This document shows positions 2 to 44,774 of a stretch of DNA of 64,000 bases, piece by piece (the first letter of the stretch is position 1; the number at the start of each line of letters is the position of its first letter). Location: assembly GCA_965248265.1 (NCBI GenBank), contig CBDFJF010000001.1:320001-384000 (forward strand). The letters run 5' to 3'. The notes beneath the pieces were generated by a model that searched no databases, had not been told where the DNA came from, and saw only the letters and a program-made list of their open reading frames with translations. Both the position numbers and the translations under genes were made by a program. Origin of the DNA: Candidatus Latescibacterota bacterium (lineage in GTDB: Bacteria; Latescibacterota; UBA2968; UBA8231).

Positions 2-3000
2 CCGACGAATCCGCAGACGGTAGCTTCGGAGGTGGCGGACAATCCGATCTACGTCCACGTGGCAGATCCAGACGATGGTAGTGGCCTCGGCGCCGACGAC
101 AACAATGACGATGGCTTTCTGACCGGCAGTTGGGAGAGCGTGGGTTCGACGCTGGCCGACGACGACAAGTTCTTCGAGGGGTTGATCAACGAGGATTCGA
201 ATTCGACCAACGAATGGGGAGATGATGACGACAAGATCGGTTTGTTGCTCAAGTTGAACGTGCTGGGCGTCGATTCCACGACGAATCTGCAGGTTGTAAC
301 CAATAGCACCGCAAGTGCCGCTGGCACTGGATTCGGCGCACGCTCCGTACGCGTCGGATCGACACCGGTCGTCGGTTTTACCAGCGGAGCCTACTTTGCT
401 CTGGGAGCGAACATTGACATCGTGCCGTCGAACGCAGCACCCACAGTGGCTGTGCTGGAGCCGGATGGCACCGGTGACACCGCAGACACGTCCTTCCTCA
501 TCGAATACGACCTGAACGATGCCGACGACGATCTCGACGCGGGTATGACTGCCGCGCTTTATGCCTACCCTTCTGATAACCTGGGGACGGTGAGGGATAT
601 CCGGATTTTCGCGACACTCATCGCGGATGAGAATGATGTCTCGGCGAACAATGTCAACGGCACCGACGATCTGGAAGAAGGCAACAACCGGGACTATACC
701 TGGGATGACCCCTCTGACGCTCTGAAAAGCAACCTGTTCGCGTCCATCTTCCGCGTGCCGAGTGGCTCTTACTTCATCTATCTGGTCGCCGACGACGGCA
801 ACAACCCGCCGGTATTCGCCGTCAGCTCAGGCCCCCTCAGTATCGTACACAGCCCGATCGTTCAGCAGGTCGACCCGATTGTTGCTGACACCGTGGATTC
901 CGGAGTGCGTACCGGCCTCAAGGCGAATCCATACGACCTCGACTTCAGCGTCGTCGACCACGACAGCGATGCCCGCGTGCAGCTGTTCTACGCCTCGGTC
1001 AGCGGCATCACTTCCGTTTCCGTGACCGGTTCCTACCCGAATCAGCGTTTTGTCCTGGGAAAAAGCGTGGCGGGCACTCGCGGCATCGCCATCACGGATT
1101 CGACGATTTTGACGGACCTAGACAGGGAGTTTTCGTGGGATATCACCGATTCCGTCTTCGTAGCGGGAGACTCAGCCATCGTCGACGACGGGACCTACTT
1201 CCTCTATGCGGTGGCGACAGATTCGATAAACGTCAGCGTCGGCAACAGTGCCACGTCCCTGGTAGTCAAGCACTCGCCCTCGTTCGAATTCTTCGAGCCT
1301 GCTGAAGACACCCAACGCAGCATCGACTCGGGCTCCCAATCCGCTTACACGATCCAATGGCAAAAGGGACCCGGGGACGATGATTACGATGACAATGCCT
1401 CGATCGATCTGTACTTCACGACGGATGATCCGGCCGTCGTCGATCATTCGACTGAGGCAGGCGCAACGACGGACGCTCTGATCAACGATGCCGACACCAA
1501 AACGATCGTCACCGGCCTTACCGAAGATGGGGATGGATCCTCTGACATGTACGTGTGGAATCTGCAAACGCCACCCAATAACATCCCCGTGAGCGGCGCG
1601 CAGGTGTGGGTTTACGCTGTCGCGATCGGTGCCACGGATACGACCGTGGCCCGGGGCGGTTCAGTCACCATCACGCACACGCCATACATGCGGTTGAATA
1701 CCCGGATGCCGGAGATCAACCAGGGTGATGTCATCAGGCTCGAATGGGAGGCCTACATGGTGGACGACGGATCCAGCACGGACGATGCCTACATCCGACT
1801 GTACGCGTCAACGAGCAGTGGCTTGACCACGGCGCAGGACCTCGAGGCCAACCTGGTAGGAGAGGGTGGGGCTGATAACACGTATATCATCAACAGTAGT
1901 GACGGCACTGCCACCGGGACGATCACGTCGATCCGTGAGACGGACGGAGATGCCTTCTCCTGGGATACCAACACCAGCACATTCACCCTGGATGAGGGAA
2001 ACTACGCCATCTACGCTGCCATCAGTGGGGATGCCACGTTCGTCGACAACACCCGGGGCAGAGTCAGTGAGTCTTCCAACCTGCTATCTGTGAAGACCAG
2101 TCAGGGCACTACGCCCAACATGGTTGTCAGCCCTAACGAGCTTATCGCCAGTGTCGGTGATACATTGACATTCGAGGTGCTCGTACAGACCGACGGCATC
2201 CCCGCCACTATGGTGTCGGCGATCATGGATTTTCCAACGAATCTCGATACGGTCAGCTTCAGTCCATTCACCGATCTGGGTGAGGTGTTCTCCGGAGGCT
2301 CCGTGATCGAGGACACGACCATTGGCAATCAACTTCGCTATACGAGAACGGGTACCGCAGAGATCATCGGAACCACGGAAGATCCAGCGCGCCTGGCCAG
2401 TTTCCAACTGGTCGTCACCAGCCCCTTCAACGGGAAAACCAGCATTTCGTTCGACGATACAGAGGCGGCCCTCAGCATCGTCGGCCGCTCGGCTCCTCTG
2501 ACTGAGACCACGGGGATGTCTGCCTTTGACGCTGAGATTCAATCGGCTCCGCGGGGGCGCATTCTGGCCACGGTCCTGCTCGAGGGACGCGCGCCCCCAG
2601 TGGGTAGTGGCAATCACAAGACTCGACTGGACGTGCACCTTCGTGTGCCCGGTAGTACGATAGACATCGGCGATGCGATATTCACCGCAGCCAACGACGA
2701 CGTGCCGGGTACGGCTGACACCGTAGAAGTTGAGACCTCGTCGGCCGGAGGACTGGCCCTCTTGAGCGTGCCGCAGGGTCGTTACGTCCTCACCTTCAAG
2801 GATTCGAGCCATCTGAGTGGTCGCACGGATACGCTGACGATTCGCAACGGTGAGACGATCGTGTTGAGCTCCGCAGAAGGGTTGTTCGCATCCGACATTC
2901 GGGGCGATGCTTCGTTCCTGCTCAGTCAGGACGGCAAACTGCTCAAGGCCGGTGATGCAACCGGGGACAACGAGATCGACGAGGACGACGTCAACGCCAT

Positions 3001-37619: not shown

Positions 37620-40600
37620 TCACACTGAGGTCTTCCTCACCGATTCCAGCACGCTCAACACCGAGTCCATGTCGAACGAATCGACGTGGGGCTTGAGCAG
37701 TGCGGCCAGCTTCGCTTCATCCTCGCTCGCACACGCCATCTCCGCAATCACCAAGCGCAGTTCGGTTACATTTGCCACCTCAGCGGCTGCCCGCACACGC
37801 TCGTGCAGGTCAGCAGAAACTGTAGTCGATTCCAAGACCGCCGGTCCGGCCTCTTCGGGCGCGGCCTGATTCGCCGTTTCCTCAAATGCGACACCCAGCA
37901 TCTGCTCGAGGCACTGACAAATTTGGCCAACCCGTACCGGTTTGCCGATGAACTCGTCGAAGCCAGCCGACAGGTAGTGTTGCCGCTCGTGTTCCAGAGT
38001 TGAAGCGGATACGGCGACAATCTTGAGAGCCAGGTCCGGGTCCGCTACGAGTTTCCGCATAGCCTCCATGCCATCCATCTCGGGCATGCGGATGTCCATG
38101 AATACGATGTCCGGTCGCTCACGTCGACTGATCTCGAGCGCTTCGATACCGTTGACGGCGGAGTGCACTTCGACACCGATCGCCCCCAGCAACTGCTCCA
38201 GAATATCCCGGTTCTCGGGCACGTCATCAGCCACCAACGCTTTCACCTGACAGCCGCCAGCCAACCGCCTGACGCGGCCATAGTCTTCTTTGTGCTCGCG
38301 CACTCCTCCTGCCGCGGTCGAAAGCGGCAGAGTGAAGTAAAAGCGTGTGCCTTCGCGAGACGATTCAAACTCCAGTTCCCCACCCATCAAGTGTACAAGA
38401 CGGCGCGAGACGGCCAGGCCCAAGCCTGTCCCTCCGGTGTCCCTGCCTGCCTCTCCTTGCTGGAACGGCTGGTACAGTGTTTTCTGTTCCTCTTCCGAGA
38501 TCCCTCTCCCGCTATCGATAACCTCGAAGAGATAAGTCTCACCTCCAACCTGCGCGACGCGCAGCGTTACGTCTCCTTCCTGCGTGAACTTCACCGCGTT
38601 GCCCAACAGGTTGATCAGCACCTGCATCAACTTACTCTCATCGCCATATACCAGAACGTGTGACTCTTTCAAACTCTTGAGCTTCCAGCCCAGCGCCTGC
38701 TCGCGGCATCGTAGCTGGAACATCTCTGACACACTCTGCAGTAACCTTACCAGGTCGAAGTCGACGGCGTGAACATCCATGCGGCCGGCTTCGATCTTGG
38801 AGATATCCAGTACCTCGTTGATCAACCTGAGCAGGTGATCACCACTCGCCTGGATTGTTTCCACAGCCTGTCGATGGTTGTCCACCAACTCCGGACTGCT
38901 TTGCATGATCTGCGCATACCCGATGATGGCATTCATCGGGGTCCGGATCTCATGGCTGATATTGGCCAGAAATTGCGACTTCGCCTGGCTGGCCAGTTCG
39001 GCGGCCTCCTTGGCCTCCAGCAGCCCGGCGTTGGACTGTTCGAGCTCGGCGATGAGGCGATTCTGGGCATCCGCGGCCTCGGTGAAGTCCCGGTAACGTG
39101 CGTGCGCGAGGTCGACGACTTCGACGAAATCCTCTATGCGGGCGATCTCCCAGTTGCTGAAGGGCTCTGCTTGTCCACGCCAACCGCGGCGCACACAGAT
39201 GACGCCTGTTTCGAATGGAACGTCCAGAGCCCACACCGTGCCTGATGCGGCCAGTCCCACGTCAGCAGTACCCGAAAGCGGCGCCCACACCTCTTTCTCT
39301 CGAGGATCCATCTGTCGTGGTTTGGGTACGCCCGTGCGTGCCTCTGCCAGGAAACGTCCAACCTCATCCGGGTCCGAGATCGTGGACCTCTGCAACGCGC
39401 CCGCCGAGTCGACCTGCAACGCCTCGACGTGCGAGGTACCCTTCGGCGTGCACAGGGTGAGCTGGTCGAAATGCAGGCCGACGACCAGCAGTTCGTCCGC
39501 AATCTGGGCAAGCACTGTCTGCAGGTGCTCCGGCTGTTTCATATCGAGCACGGTTTGCCGTACGCGCTCCCGTGCTTCCTCGATGGTGAGGCTGCGTAGA
39601 TGCCCAGCGACCTCCTCGTCCTGAGTCTGAACGCTTTCCAGGACGTGGCTGGCGACGGAACGTCCAGCAACATTGAGGACCTCGGCAAGCACCCGCGGTC
39701 CGCCGACCTCCTGGTGTGCGCCCGGCACATTGCGAAGGGTGTGTTCGAGGTCTTCCTCGATATCCTTCAATACTGAGGGAGTCACGTTTTCCATGGTCGC
39801 CATCCGGTACGACACATCAGCCTGCAGGCGTGGTGAGAGCTGGGCCAGCATGGCTCCAGACTGTCGCGGATCCACTTGCGAGAGGATGAGAGCGATGGTT
39901 TGGGGGTGCTCGCGTGAGATGTGGAGGGCTACGTGCTCAGGGCTGATGTTCTTGAGGATGTAGGTGCCCGATGACGCGGTGCTGGTAACGCGCGCAAAGA
40001 TCTCATCCGCCTTGCGCCTTCCGACAGCATGCTCCAGAGCGTTCCGGGTGAACTCGGTGCCTCCGCTTGCCATCCAATCGCCAGAGCGCAGACGCCCAAC
40101 GAACTCGTCGAGCTCACGGGCGTGAATCTCGGCGGACACGTTCTGTAACGCCGCCATGGACTGGGAGACCACTTCAATCTCGTAGTCGGACAGGAGCTTG
40201 AGGATCTTTCCAGTCAACTGCTCACCGAGCCCGACCAGGACGATGGCAACCTTGACCATTGACGGCAGTTCCTCTGAGGGTGAATCAGCGTTTTCCTCGA
40301 GGGCCATGGTGCGAACGATCCGAGCAGCGTCAGCGATGTGGTGGGCAACAAACTCTCTCGGCGTCAGTGTCGCCTGGTCGATCTCCTGCCGGGGGGTGGG
40401 TGGCGCTGGTTCGCCTGCAGTGCCGCCGGTCGATTCGTCGGACAGCGGTTCCGTGTCGGCAGCTGGCGGCGGGTGTAATGCGTGTTCGGCAACGCCGGGC
40501 ACGAACCTGGGTGCAGGCTGGAGCCTGGGGGAGCCCGGTTGTCGGCTCGCGGCGAGCAGTGAGGCGGACAGGCTCCATGCCGGTTCCGGGTAGGGTGGGG

Positions 40601-40715
40601 GAAGTGGCATGGCGTCCACCTCCGTCAGGGTCAGTGGCAGCCAGTCGGCGACGGTCGCCCGCGCTGTCCTGCCAGCGGCGAGTCCCAGGATCCGTGGCTC
40701 AGTCTTGGGAGTCAT
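37620..40715 (-). CDS. FliG(N+M+ARM-C)::GAF-like::histidine kinase::receiver fusion (soluble hybrid kinase)
   Basis: [10 protein letters not shown]...[10 protein letters not shown]...[11 protein letters not shown]...[13 protein letters not shown] is Fli[26 protein letters not shown] and GGTGLGL mark the kinase. VADD...FMDIRMP...GKP is REC. Confidence 0.9.
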
Positions 40716-41791
40716 TGACGTTTCTCCTCACCCGCCGCGATCTCGACCGCGCTTTGCGCCAACCGAAAGCCGATGTGCTCGTTCGCATGGTCCTGCGGCG
40801 CGCTGTTGCGATGGATCGTCCTCACGTTGGGACGGGTCTCGGCATAAAAACCGCCCCGGATTACTCGCTCTTCGCCCGTGTCGGGTCCCTGTGGGTCCAG
40901 GTCAGGACTGTATGGGTAGTAGTTCGACTGGTAGAAGTCAGCGCACCACTCGTAGGCGTTGCCGGCCATGTCCCAGGCTCCGTATGGGCTACGGCCAAGG
41001 GGAAACTCATCGACCGGGGTTGTCGTGCCCACGAGATTGTTGGAATTACATCGTTCGCCATCGACGAAGTGATTCCCCCACGGGTAGAGGCGTCCGTCGT
41101 TGCCGCGGGCTGCCTTCTCCCATTCCGCTTCGGTCGGCAGACGTTTGCCGCGCCATCGGGCGTACTCATTCGCGTCTTCCCATGAGACGTTGACGACCGG
41201 ATGCCTCGACGTGCCCACGGGGTATGTTCCGTCGTGCCAGGCAGGCGGGGCGCGGTGTGAAGTGGCGTTCACGAACTCCTGGTAGCTGTGGTTGGTCACG
41301 GGATAGGCGTCGATGTAGTAGGGTGACATATCTAGTGTGTGAGTGGGTCGCTCGTTGTCCGGGCTGTCGCCTTCGTTGCTACCCATGACGAAGGAGCCGC
41401 CCGGAACGGCTACCATGCCCATCACGTCTTCCATCAATTCTGGTCCGCGCTCGATGGCTTCATAGGCGATGGTTTCGCGAAAGGCTCGAGTGATGCCAGA
41501 TGCCTCCGGCGCAGCGATCTGCTTGATCCTGCAACTGATCAGGTCGCTGCCGACGACGATGTCCCCATGGGCGAACAAGCGATCGTTTACTCGTACATCG
41601 TAGGATCGTCCTACGCGCTTGTTGAGCGTGATAAGGCCGCCGGGCTGCAGCTGCGCAAAAGCGTTCAGGCTCATCTGTAAGCGGCCGAGCTCGACCCTTA
41701 CTTCAAAGCGGATATCTCTGAGATGAGCCAGATTGCCGATTTCACGATCGACCATCTCTCTGGCGTCCGCTTCCGTAATCTTGCTGTTCAT
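40712..41791 (-). CDS. FliN/SPOA domain fused to a formylglycine-generating-enzyme-like (SUMF1) domain
   Basis: [12 protein letters not shown]...[22 protein letters not shown] is [46 protein letters not shown] and IGFR are FGE-like. Confidence 0.9.
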
Positions 41792-42128: not shown

Positions 42129-43094
42129 TCACTCGTTAGCGAGTGGCTGTAGCGCCTCGGGAATCTTCCCCACGGCTTTCACGGCGATGCGTCCGTTGTC
42201 CGTGGCGAACGGTCGCACGTAGAACTTGGGCAATCCTCCCACGCGCAGGATGAGAGGTTCGGTTGTCTGCGTGTCGCAGCAGATGATATCATCGACCTGC
42301 AGGCTGTCTACGTCGGCCAGGGGCAAACGCTTGCGCGCCATCTCGACGGTGAGCGGCAGTTTCACGGGGCCCAATGCAGCGCGGCTGCGCCGAGTCGCCT
42401 CCTCCTGTTCGCGGCGCCCACGGCGCACGTGGGTCTGCTGGCCAAGGAGCGGCAGGATCGACTCCAGGGTGAGGTAGGGGTAGCAGAGGCTCACCAGTCC
42501 GGATGCAAGGGGCGAATTCACCTCGAAACCGAGCACGACGACAATCTCGGCGGCGGCGGTCGTGTCCATGAACTCCGGGTTCGTTTCCAGTTCGATATCT
42601 GAGATTTCCACCGGCAGGATCGGGTGCCAGGTGTGCTCCAGATTCTCCACCACGCGCTTGACGAACTTGGCGATCACACCCATCTCGATCTGTGACATCT
42701 GTCGCTCATCGACGCCCTCCGACGAACCCTTCCCTCCGAACACGCGGTCGACGGCGGAAAAAACGAAAGGCATGGAAAAATCGAGAATGGCCTGGCCATT
42801 CGTCGGACCGAGCATGAACTGATAGGAACAGGACGGGTTTGACAAGGAGGTGATGAAATCAGCGTAGGTTTTCTGGGCAATGAAGGCTGTGTCAACGTCG
42901 ACGACGTCACGCATGGACGCGGAAAACGTCGAACTCAGCTGCCGCGCGAAGTGGTCATGTAAATTCTCCAGGGTGCGTAACTGATCCGTGTTGACCTGGG
43001 CGGGGTGCCTGAAATCGTAGGTAGCAACGATCCCATGCGATTCAGTTTCTGTCGGTGTACCATCGGTCACTGCTGTATTTGGAGTGTCACTCAT
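42129..43094 (-). CDS. fliM: Flagellar motor switch protein FliM-like, lacking the N-terminal CheY-binding peptide
   Basis: YDFRHP...LRTLENLHDHFAR, VDRVFGGKG, ETNPEF, LCYPYLTLE, C-terminal SPOA domain. Confidence 0.9.
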   Translation of the reverse strand: MSDTPNTAVTDGTPTETESHGIVATYDFRHPAQVNTDQLRTLENLHDHFARQLSSTFSASMRDVVDVDTAFIAQKTYADFITSLSNPSCSYQFMLGPTNGQAILDFSMPFVFSAVDRVFGGKGSSEGVDERQMSQIEMGVIAKFVKRVVENLEHTWHPILPVEISDIELETNPEFMDTTAAAEIVVVLGFEVNSPLASGLVSLCYPYLTLESILPLLGQQTHVRRGRREQEEATRRSRAALGPVKLPLTVEMARKRLPLADVDSLQVDDIICCDTQTTEPLILRVGGLPKFYVRPFATDNGRIAVKAVGKIPEALQPLANE

Positions 43095-44646
43095 GCCTTG
43101 CTCCTCCTGGCGTGGTTTCTGCAGCCGTCCTGTGCAAGTCCGCAGGGTCAACCTCGTTGCGCAACACCCGGTACAACCGGTTTCGGCTCGTTCCCAGCTG
43201 ACGCGCCGCCTTCGTCACGTTGCCATCGCTCTGCTGCATGGCCACGCCTACCACCCACTTCTCCGCGCACCGCACAGCCCGATCCAGGTCCAGCGGCAAG
43301 TCGGGAGCCCCCGGACTCCTGTCACCTGAATCTCCACCTTCGCCGTCCGTCGTCGCTCGCGGAACGCGCAAGAAGTGCAAGTGATGCGGCAGTACTTCAA
43401 CGCCCCCACTCTCGATCAAGGCGCGCTCCATGAGGTTTTTCAGCTCGCGCACGTTTCCCGGAAACCGATATCGTTGCAGAATTTCCACCGCATCCAAGCT
43501 GAGATCCGGTACCTCGCGCCCCATCTCTTCCGCGAACAGCTTGAGGAAGTGGCGCGCCAGAATCGGAATGTCCTCCGTGCGCTCTCGCAGCGGCGGTGAG
43601 GTGACCGTGAACCGCGCCAGCCGGTAGTACAGATCCTGCCGAAAGCTCTTCGCCTGGAGCCGCTGTTGCAGCTCGACGTTTGTCGCCGCCAGCACCCGCA
43701 CCGCCACCTTCTTCCCCTCGGTTGCTCCGATTCGCCACACAACGCCGTCCTCCAGAACCCGCAGTAGCTTGCTCTGCAGCTCCAGTGGCATGTCGGCGAT
43801 TTCGTCCAGAAACAGCGTGCCGCCGTCGGCGATCTCGAAGAATCCGAGCCGGTCGTCACTGGCACCTGTGAATGATCCCCGGTTATGTCCGAACAGGGCC
43901 GATTCGACAAGGTCCGCCGGAATGGCCGCGCAGTTTACGGGCACGAAGGGCCCATCCTGCCTTGCCCCACCGAAGTGGATGGCCCGTGCGATCAGCTCCT
44001 TGCCGGTTCCACTCTCACCAGTGATCAGCACCGAGGTCATCGGGCTGTCCTGCATCAGATGGATCTCTTTGAAGATTCTCTGGATGGTAGCGCTCTGTCC
44101 TACGAAATCCTCCAACCCCCAGCGTACAGCTTCGCGCTCGGAAATCATCGATAGACGTCCCTTGAGCGCCTTCCGCTGGACGATCTCAAGCTCCAGCTCT
44201 CGATTGGTCTCTGCGAGTGCCGCATTCTTCCTCTGCAGTTCCGTCGCCAGCCGGCTCAGTCGCACGTGCGTTTCGACTCGAGAGAGAACCTCCTCTTCCT
44301 GGAATGGCTTGGTGATGTAGTCGACCCCACCGGCCCTGAAACCGGCAATGACATCCTCTTTTCGGTCTCGGCCGGTCAGGAAGATGACGGGAATCCCGGC
44401 GGTCTCTTCAGTTTGCTTGAGCCGTCTGCACACTTCGTATCCATCCATCTCGGGCATGACCACATCCAGCAGTACGATGTCCGGCTGGCCCCGTACCGCT
44501 ATATGGAGAGCATTCTGTCCTCTGGTTGCTACCATTACGCTATTATTCGCTGCCTCGAGAAGCTCGAGGAGGACTTTGAGGTTCGTCGGATTGTCATCGA
44601 CAATGAGGATTCTCGCTCCCCGCGGAGTGGATTGTGGCTCAACCAT
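43087..44646 (-). CDS. NtrC-family sigma-54-dependent response regulator (REC, coiled coil, AAA+, Fis HTH)
   Basis: ILIVDD..LLDVVMP, GESGTGKE, GSFTGA, LFLDEI, FRQDLYYRL, PGNVRELKN, NVTKAARQLGTSR. GGAGGA RBS before ATG 44646. Confidence 0.94.
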   Translation of the reverse strand: MVEPQSTPRGARILIVDDNPTNLKVLLELLEAANNSVMVATRGQNALHIAVRGQPDIVLLDVVMPEMDGYEVCRRLKQTEETAGIPVIFLTGRDRKEDVIAGFRAGGVDYITKPFQEEEVLSRVETHVRLSRLATELQRKNAALAETNRELELEIVQRKALKGRLSMISEREAVRWGLEDFVGQSATIQRIFKEIHLMQDSPMTSVLITGESGTGKELIARAIHFGGARQDGPFVPVNCAAIPADLVESALFGHNRGSFTGASDDRLGFFEIADGGTLFLDEIADMPLELQSKLLRVLEDGVVWRIGATEGKKVAVRVLAATNVELQQRLQAKSFRQDLYYRLARFTVTSPPLRERTEDIPILARHFLKLFAEEMGREVPDLSLDAVEILQRYRFPGNVRELKNLMERALIESGGVEVLPHHLHFLRVPRATTDGEGGDSGDRSPGAPDLPLDLDRAVRCAEKWVVGVAMQQSDGNVTKAARQLGTSRNRLYRVLRNEVDPADLHRTAAETTPGGARHE

Positions 44647-44659
44647 CTTTATCCTCCAA

Positions 44660-44675
44660 TGCAATGCCTGTACCA
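44660..44675 (-). promoter_or_regulatory. Candidate sigma-54 -24/-12 promoter TGGTACAGGCATTGCA
   Basis: Correct GG-N10-GC spacing and near-consensus sequence. Caveat: the predicted start site falls only a few nt before the ATG. Confidence 0.55.
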
Positions 44676-44774
44676 ACTCGACTGGATGCTGGCTTTATAT
44701 ATTGTATTTAATTGAGTTATGACATTTTAAAAGGAGTTCGTATGCCCACTGGAATCGTACCGAATTCGTAGCAG

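Follow-up and report, generated by a model that had tools for sequence, protein, structure and literature searches.

A diverged homologue of the FliF C-terminal tail in front of FliG_N in a FliG-histidine kinase fusion

The flagellar switch is tied to the membrane ring (MS ring) at the interface between the C-terminal tail of FliF and the amino-terminal domain of FliG (FliG_N), and FliG_N needs the tail to reach its final fold. Fusions that join FliF to FliG in full frame, both spontaneous and engineered, are known from Salmonella and, reportedly, also from Vibrio. Here we describe a gene in a 64,000 nucleotide stretch of DNA from a Candidatus Latescibacterota bacterium (the window, meaning the whole stretch that was analysed). 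The gene encodes a hybrid histidine kinase, P0001, which carries FliG_N and the middle domain of FliG (FliG_M) ahead of its kinase core and a peptide resembling the FliF tail ahead of FliG_N. An earlier interpretation made from the DNA letters without database searches (the sequence-only reading) had described this peptide as a built-in mimic of the FliG-binding C-terminus of FliF.

Known systems and the FliG-kinase

FliG_N co-folds with the FliF C-terminal tail, and Salmonella strains carrying fliF-fliG fusions are motile (PMC6079021, PMC7355467). Co-folded complexes of the tail with FliG_N have been solved from T. maritima (5TDY) and H. pylori (5WUJ), and a hinge has been described in the T. 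maritima tail (PMC6079021). P0001 shares with these complexes a tail of ~36 residues, built as helix-hinge-helix, together with FliG_N. Unlike the solved complexes, however, it carries both parts on one polypeptide and lacks the rest of FliF, namely the transmembrane segments and the ring-building domains, and the host protein is a kinase rather than a rotor subunit.

The full-frame Salmonella fusions resemble the arrangement in P0001 in that the C-terminus of FliF is joined head-to-tail to the N-terminus of FliG with few residues lost at the joint, the last six residues of FliF being replaced by one (PMC6079021). These fusions stay competent for assembly, which shows that a 1:1 geometry in cis is possible, and they keep all of FliF and all of FliG and build a membrane-anchored rotor (PMC6079021, PMC7355467). 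In contrast, the natural module described here retains the tail only, has dropped the C-terminal domain of FliG (FliG_C) and occurs in paralogues beside an intact, separate fliF.

The nearest functional analogue in print is the FlgS/FlgR checkpoint of C. jejuni, where the MS ring and rotor are sensed by a histidine kinase of the cytoplasm, which in turn activates a sigma-54 regulator (PMC3760246). Both systems tie a histidine kinase to FliF and FliG, with an NtrC-type sigma-54 activator as the partner (in P0001 a probable one), but FlgS is a protein in its own right, which joins FliF/FliG in their assembled form (PMC3760246). In P0001 the FliF tail and the N and M domains of FliG belong to the polypeptide of the kinase, and FliM and FliN are supplied by the operon itself. 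Compared with a canonical FliG of this genome, P0020, the kinase retains 48% identity over FliG residues 8-247 and keeps the EHPQ loop of FliG_M; it differs in lacking the torque helix of FliG_C and in adding the FliF-tail module at the N-terminus and a GAF-kinase at the C-terminus. Searches of the open-access literature turned up neither a natural fusion of FliG to the FliF tail alone nor a fusion of FliG to a histidine kinase. What is new is the single-chain, FliF-less and kinase-linked form; the components and the interface were already known.

Homology of the peptide to the FliF tail

Comparisons at the sequence level identify residues ~108-143 of P0001 as a diverged, built-in homologue of the FliF C-terminal tail, and not a chance resemblance. 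The peptide most like FliF spans residues 119-141, which by exact translation correspond to positions 40293-40361 on the minus strand. The sequence-only reading had placed it behind a Pro-rich leader and directly before FliG_N, and this arrangement holds, with FliG_N starting at residue 150; the coordinates it gave, 40295-40363, lie out of frame by 2 nt. The term mimic does not fit, as the peptide is related to the FliG-binding tail of FliF by descent.

The case for common descent rests on the fused homologues as a group. A protein search returned 15 of them, 10 FliG-kinases and 5 FliM-FliN-FliG fusions, and in all 15 the peptide has been preserved and aligns in one set of columns ahead of FliG_N, in keeping with what the sequence-only reading would predict. 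A profile of 14 fused peptides (A1), built with no FliF included, was compared with P0017, the last 60 residues of this genome's own FliF, and hhalign returned a probability of 99.1% with an E-value of 5.6e-19. Searched against the PDB, A1 gave a sole match at E < 0.01, to residues 540-566 of a Flagellar M-ring protein of 569 residues (E 0.0014); no FliF chain of 560 residues was listed at E <= 10. P0017 itself had only two PDB matches at E <= 10, the same 569-residue M-ring protein and 5wuj_A (E 0.03), which is the FliF peptide of H. pylori in its crystal structure with FliG. In a six-frame search of the bacterium's own genome A1 ranked the C-terminus of FliF first, at 65.7 bits, with the window copy at 55.5 bits. 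Among 1.84 billion representative proteins A1 found 31 matches at E <= 0.001, which we sorted by reading the sequences and not by Pfam: in 21 the match stops no more than 17 residues short of the C-terminus of a FliF-like protein or fragment, 3 are fusions, 2 are mini-proteins that bear Trp, and 5 are repeat proteins with multiple matching stretches, taken as false positives. A search for shorter homologous proteins returned only 2 matches, both FliG of ordinary length.

The sequence-only reading had also remarked on a Met in place of the conserved Trp of FliF. Trp is indeed the residue in the 569-residue FliF matched in the PDB, but Met is normal in this lineage, being present in 30 of the 30 FliF-type tails read in the phylum, and this rules out Met as a derived substitution of the fused copy. 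Trp does occur in a free-standing open reading frame (ORF) of ~46 residues in the same genome (C2:~3416426-3416566, plus strand), which is FliF-tail-like and has Trp where the FliF of this lineage has Met.

The junction is seen in a homologue, P0007, in which residues 188-223 match the FliF tail (27 of 36 positions identical to P0017, E 9e-18) and residues 224-463 match residues 9-246 of a canonical FliG at 68% identity. In P0001 itself residues 120-143 match the FliF tail through the last residue of the tail, and residues 142-377 match residues 8-247 of P0020. In both proteins homology to FliF stops where homology to FliG residue 8-9 starts, which bears out the suggestion of the sequence-only reading that the module arose at an ancestral fliF-fliG junction. 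The end of FliF meets the start of FliG with few residues lost, and this points to a fusion of adjacent fliF and fliG genes by read-through or deletion. The alignments thus show a module inherited from a head-to-tail fliF-fliG fusion, which kept the last ~36 residues of FliF and was joined near residue 8 of FliG; it offers an evolutionary snapshot of a split domain re-joined by the fusion of neighbouring genes. In the present genome the single full-length FliF is encoded at C2:4116108-4117625, and fliH and fliI come straight after it without an intervening fliG.

Taken by itself the window copy is much diverged, and several comparisons count against its identification. The best BLASTP match of P0017 to the whole of P0001 does fall on residues 120-143, with 9 of 24 positions identical and 16 of 24 positive, but the E-value is only 0.003 in this single comparison. 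A profile of 27 FliF tails, from which the genome's own FliF had been left out, scored the window copy at 10.5 bits and covered helix 2 only (residues 128-142). Run in six frames over the whole genome, that profile recovered the own FliF at E 4.7e-28, a mini-ORF before mreB at E 0.0014 and a FliG paralogue (L020) at E 0.21, and did not list the window copy at E <= 10. Could the likeness then be no more than that of any amphipathic helix to FliF, without common descent? We regard this as extremely improbable. Under the same FliF-only profile the fused proteins form a graded series, in which P0004, P0005 and P0007 score 70-76 bits, P0003 and P0006 score 40-47 bits, and the other kinases P0002, P0012, P0013 and P0014 score 14-16 bits, followed by the window protein; P0015 shows nothing at the right place, and the canonical FliGs P0020 and P0018 show nothing at all. 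Orthologous fusions thus run from 75% identity with the FliF tail down to the window copy in a constant slot before FliG_N. The profile of fused peptides lands independently on FliF C-termini in the PDB, in the own genome and among the 1.84 billion proteins, and the junction abuts FliG residue 8-9. On these three grounds we rejected chance resemblance. As the direct score of the window copy is weak, the identification rests on the graded series of orthologues and not on the window sequence alone.

Predicted fold and binding to FliG_N

A model of P0001 residues 100-345, calculated with AlphaFold2 (AF2) from an alignment of 20 rows, had a mean predicted local distance difference test score (pLDDT) of 81.6. 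It contains two helices separated by a hinge, as in the FliF tail, at residues 119-125 and 127-142, with block pLDDT values of 94 and 90, followed by a linker at pLDDT 62. The segment is therefore not predicted to be disordered, in agreement with the sequence-only reading, and forms a confident helix-hinge-helix. A Foldseek search with the same model retrieved the FliG chains 8umd_B, 3hjl and 4fq0_C, confirming the FliG N+M unit.

We also predicted the complex of FliG_N (residues 145-254) with the peptide (residues 100-144) as separate chains, alongside three controls. The three scores, 0.56, 0.52 and 0.54, compare with 0.00 for the best control; contacts agreed to at least 89% between runs, and the pLDDT of the partner was no lower than 60. 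The result was graded as weak support. The mark applied to such scores is reached by 116 of 157 solved complexes and by 2 of 215 mismatched pairs, and scores of 0.60 or below comprise 18 of the 157 solved complexes and both mismatches that passed. As the FliF:FliG complexes 5TDY and 5WUJ have been solved, the pass may reflect memory, and so likeness rather than binding. The linker between the tail and FliG_N is ~10 residues long and derives from FliG's own N-terminal tail. From the models, this short linker and the published viability of full-frame fusions (PMC7355467) we infer that the peptide may bind FliG_N in cis.

We consider it rather probable that a closed, single-chain FliF-tail:FliG_N domain makes the FliG N+M unit of P0001 an adaptor that is independent of the MS ring and ties a GAF-containing hybrid kinase to the operon's FliM and FliN. 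The FliF tail would pack back onto FliG_N of the same chain, and what is otherwise a split domain made of two chains would become a closed domain on a single chain, stable without the MS ring and no longer able to be anchored by FliF. The FliG N+M unit would then act as an adaptor, in which FliG_M may bind the FliM and FliN paralogues of the operon, and would couple a switch-like complex to the GAF-regulated hybrid histidine kinase and probably to the sigma-54 activator encoded in the same operon. It is thus probable that the rotor piece of the FliG-kinase folds independently of a flagellum and works as an adaptor in signalling; the built-in tail may also release the complex from the MS ring, as the sequence-only reading proposed. 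A protein with its own tail offers structural and biophysical work a single-chain version of the joint that exists already and is probably soluble.

A number of points speak against this proposal. Packing of the tail onto FliG_N in cis is supported by predictions only, with a complex verdict of weak that came without a list of contacts, and nothing in the data separates binding in cis from binding in trans. Foldseek is a single-chain comparison, silent on the FliG_N groove and on the position of the peptide in it. It is gene order and knowledge of the families that point to the partner regulator of the kinase and to binding between FliG_M and the FliM of the operon.

If binding occurs in trans, the tail would engage the FliG_N of another chain and not its own. 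With a neighbouring FliG-kinase as the partner, head-to-tail chains or rings could form without the MS ring as a template. With one of the genome's tail-less canonical FliG paralogues as the partner, the protein would oppose FliF as a decoy or competitor and connect the assembly of flagella to signalling. The genome does contain at least five canonical-type FliG paralogues without the tail beside its one full FliF, and the complex prediction still passed, weakly, with the peptide as a separate chain (0.54 against 0.00), showing no preference for cis. The ~10-residue linker, however, gives the 1:1 geometry of a pair in cis, which is also that of the full-frame fusion in motile Salmonella (PMC7355467), and the helices were obtained at pLDDT 90-94 in a single-chain model. 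In addition, the fused peptides are far more variable than the near-invariant FliF tails, which fits a private partner better than a shared canonical FliG_N. We therefore regard binding in trans as unlikely.

It is also conceivable, though quite improbable in our view, that the peptide is the decaying remnant of a fusion, which now serves only as a linker in front of a FliG_N adapted to fold without the tail. The window copy is among the most diverged under the FliF-only profile, some distance below the values of P0004, P0005 and P0007, and its first helix is short, with a 5-column insertion relative to the homologues in A1; a copy as worn as this could have lost binding, which is a further point against the closed single-chain domain. 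Set against decay is the pattern of conservation. The core of helix 2 is kept, with A130 and A131 at least 90% conserved and R135 invariant within 11 FliG-kinases, and the peptide survives in every one of the fused homologues, while the leader before it (residues ~47-107) has no conserved columns in alignment A3. The confidence of AF2 is likewise high on the helices and low on the flanking linker.

Distribution, domain architecture and operon

Applied to the phylum at E <= 0.001, A1 gave 68 matches in all, in 47 of 168 genomes and 5 of 14 families. We read 50 of these, the 30 best and 20 picked for unusual lengths of their open frames, so that the sample is not random; the remaining 18 comprise the window copy, the own mini-ORF and 16 others, in 14 of which the open frame is 501-571 residues long. 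The loci read fall into 30 FliF-type tails, with a stop 0-8 residues past the match, 11 tails fused in front of FliG_N and 9 mini-ORFs with open frames of 48-92 residues. FliG_N lay right behind the tail in 10 of 10 fused ORFs given to Pfam, and their architectures were varied: FliG(N,M)-kinase, FliM-FliN-tail-FliG(N,M,C), long leader-tail-FliG(N,M,C), tail-FliG(N,M) and one protein with repeated FliG_N units. The last is a protein of 444 residues encoded at locus L142 (G042:C1:5628600-5631700, ORF 1169-2500, plus strand), in which Pfam finds three FliG_N stretches; at least two of these stand behind a tail-like peptide, forming tandem units of tail and FliG_N. An alignment of full-length FliG-kinases was also searched against the genome contigs, and among the 80 loci kept none covers the FliG part; these loci match the kinase part only, from query residue 398 or later and mostly from ~500, and are uninformative on fusions or taxonomy. 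A FliF-like tail directly before FliG_N is a sequence marker that could sort the FliG paralogues of the phylum into those dependent on the MS ring and those probably independent of it.

The bacterium's own genome holds two more tail-bearing FliG paralogues, L017 and L020, each with a FliM paralogue behind it. Its scan for FliG_N gave 20 matches in ~11 open frames and its scan for FliM gave 8 matches, a large expansion of switch genes. Six of the FliG frames have short, tail-less N-termini, five of which start almost identically, and one tail-less frame lies just past the end of the window (C1:384404-385654). Two truncated FliF-like ORFs (C1:81351-82457, 368 residues, and C2:2882258-2882872, 204 residues) contain parts of the periplasmic domains of FliF and a transmembrane segment, without the FliG-binding tail.

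The mini-ORFs immediately precede mreB and share its strand in the own genome and in 8 of the 9 others read (loci L143-L151), the ninth locus ending at the end of its contig; their products (proteins P0045 and P0049) match no Pfam family. The product of a mini-ORF could be a free cap for the FliG_N of tail-less FliG paralogues. Building on this, we tentatively put forward a broader scheme, which we hold to be possible yet on balance doubtful. The closed FliF-tail:FliG_N domain would be a portable adaptor, and a switch complex of FliM, FliN and FliG N+M would have been repurposed as a soluble cytoplasmic scaffold, detached from the flagellum and wired to the GAF hybrid kinase and the sigma-54 activator. 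Together with the tails on full FliG paralogues and the free mini-proteins of ~45-52 residues upstream of mreB, this may point to a set of FliG_N caps that decide which FliG paralogue docks on the one MS ring. A natural protein that brings its own tail shows in concrete terms how proteins of the switch complex could leave the flagellum to become signalling scaffolds.

The features of the gene and its operon are collected in Table 1. FliG_C, with its stator-facing torque helix, was not found in P0001, where the sole PF01706 signal (E 6.1e-5, residues 254-326) overlaps FliG_M. Similarity to P0020 falls off past FliG residue 247, with a weak BLASTP extension to residue 278, and the next domain after FliG_M has a GAF fold. 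Without FliG_C the protein has neither ARM-C nor a part that faces the stator, and it is not a rotor subunit of the kind that generates torque. Neither of the Pfam families of the YscJ/FliF ring-building domains, PF01514 and PF08345, was found in P0001. The GAF assignment comes from an AF2 model of residues 378-580 (mean pLDDT 90.8, predicted template modelling score 0.81), for which the top Foldseek matches are the GAF domains 1ykd_A, 6oap_B and 3eea_A (E ~4e-4). The kinase core is well supported by Pfam (HisKA E 6e-22, HATPase_c E 4.7e-29, receiver E 8.5e-23), and the H-box residue His588 is invariant in 11 FliG-kinase homologues. The ~95 residues after the receiver are also conserved among FliG-kinases, with an invariant T984-E985-L986-R987, and may be a phosphotransfer or docking segment.

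Table 1. Positions in the window of the FliG-kinase gene, its parts and the other genes of the operon
Feature	Residues	Position	Strand	Basis
FliG-kinase gene, P0001	1031 aa	37620..40715	minus	ORF and translation
Conserved N-terminal motif	~8-46	40578..40694	minus	consensus of 11 FliG-kinase proteins
Pro-rich, poorly conserved linker	~47-107	40395..40577	minus	sequence reading, alignment A3
FliF C-terminal-tail module (core helix pair 119-142)	~108-143	40287..40394	minus	homology, AF2
FliG_N	150-248	39972..40268	minus	Pfam PF14842, E 2.5e-28; own-genome scan
FliG_M with EHPQ loop	259-331	39723..39941	minus	Pfam PF14841, E 3e-26
GAF-fold sensor domain, then long helix into HisKA	~378-528	39132..39584	minus	AF2, Foldseek
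Hybrid histidine-kinase core (HisKA, HATPase_c, receiver)	578-644, 691-799, 827-935	37911..38984	minus	Pfam
C-terminal tail, ~95 aa	~936-1031	37620..37910	minus	no Pfam match
FliN (SPOA) domain fused to FGE-sulfatase (SUMF1-like) domain		40712..41791	minus	Pfam
FliN paralogue	100 aa	41791..42093	minus	Pfam PF01052
FliM paralogue		42129..43151	minus	Pfam PF02154 and PF01052; longest ORF, true start may be an internal ATG
NtrC-type response regulator (receiver, sigma-54 AAA+ domain, Fis-type helix-turn-helix)		43087..44676	minus	Pfam

The N-terminal motif of the FliG-kinases has the consensus RILG...R...W.PP...E...P...YP in 11 proteins. By eye it is also present in the own-genome paralogue L020, and in P0008 and P0010, two FliM-FliN-FliG fusions, where it stands behind the FliN domain. 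Its Trp-Pro-Pro element might act like the FliN-binding N-terminus of FliH; inspection by eye of the N-terminus of the own FliH against the motif gave no obvious likeness.

P0001 closes the operon, its start ATG overlapping the upstream stop by 4 nt (40712-40715). The order sigma-54 regulator, FliM, FliN, FliN(-FGE) and FliG-kinase is kept in 3 of 3 genomes of the family that were checked, and the gene for the NtrC-type regulator heads the operon in G098 and G094 too. The odd pairing of FliN with a complete FGE-sulfatase domain is also found upstream of the FliG-kinase in G094, and a plain second FliN takes this place in G098.

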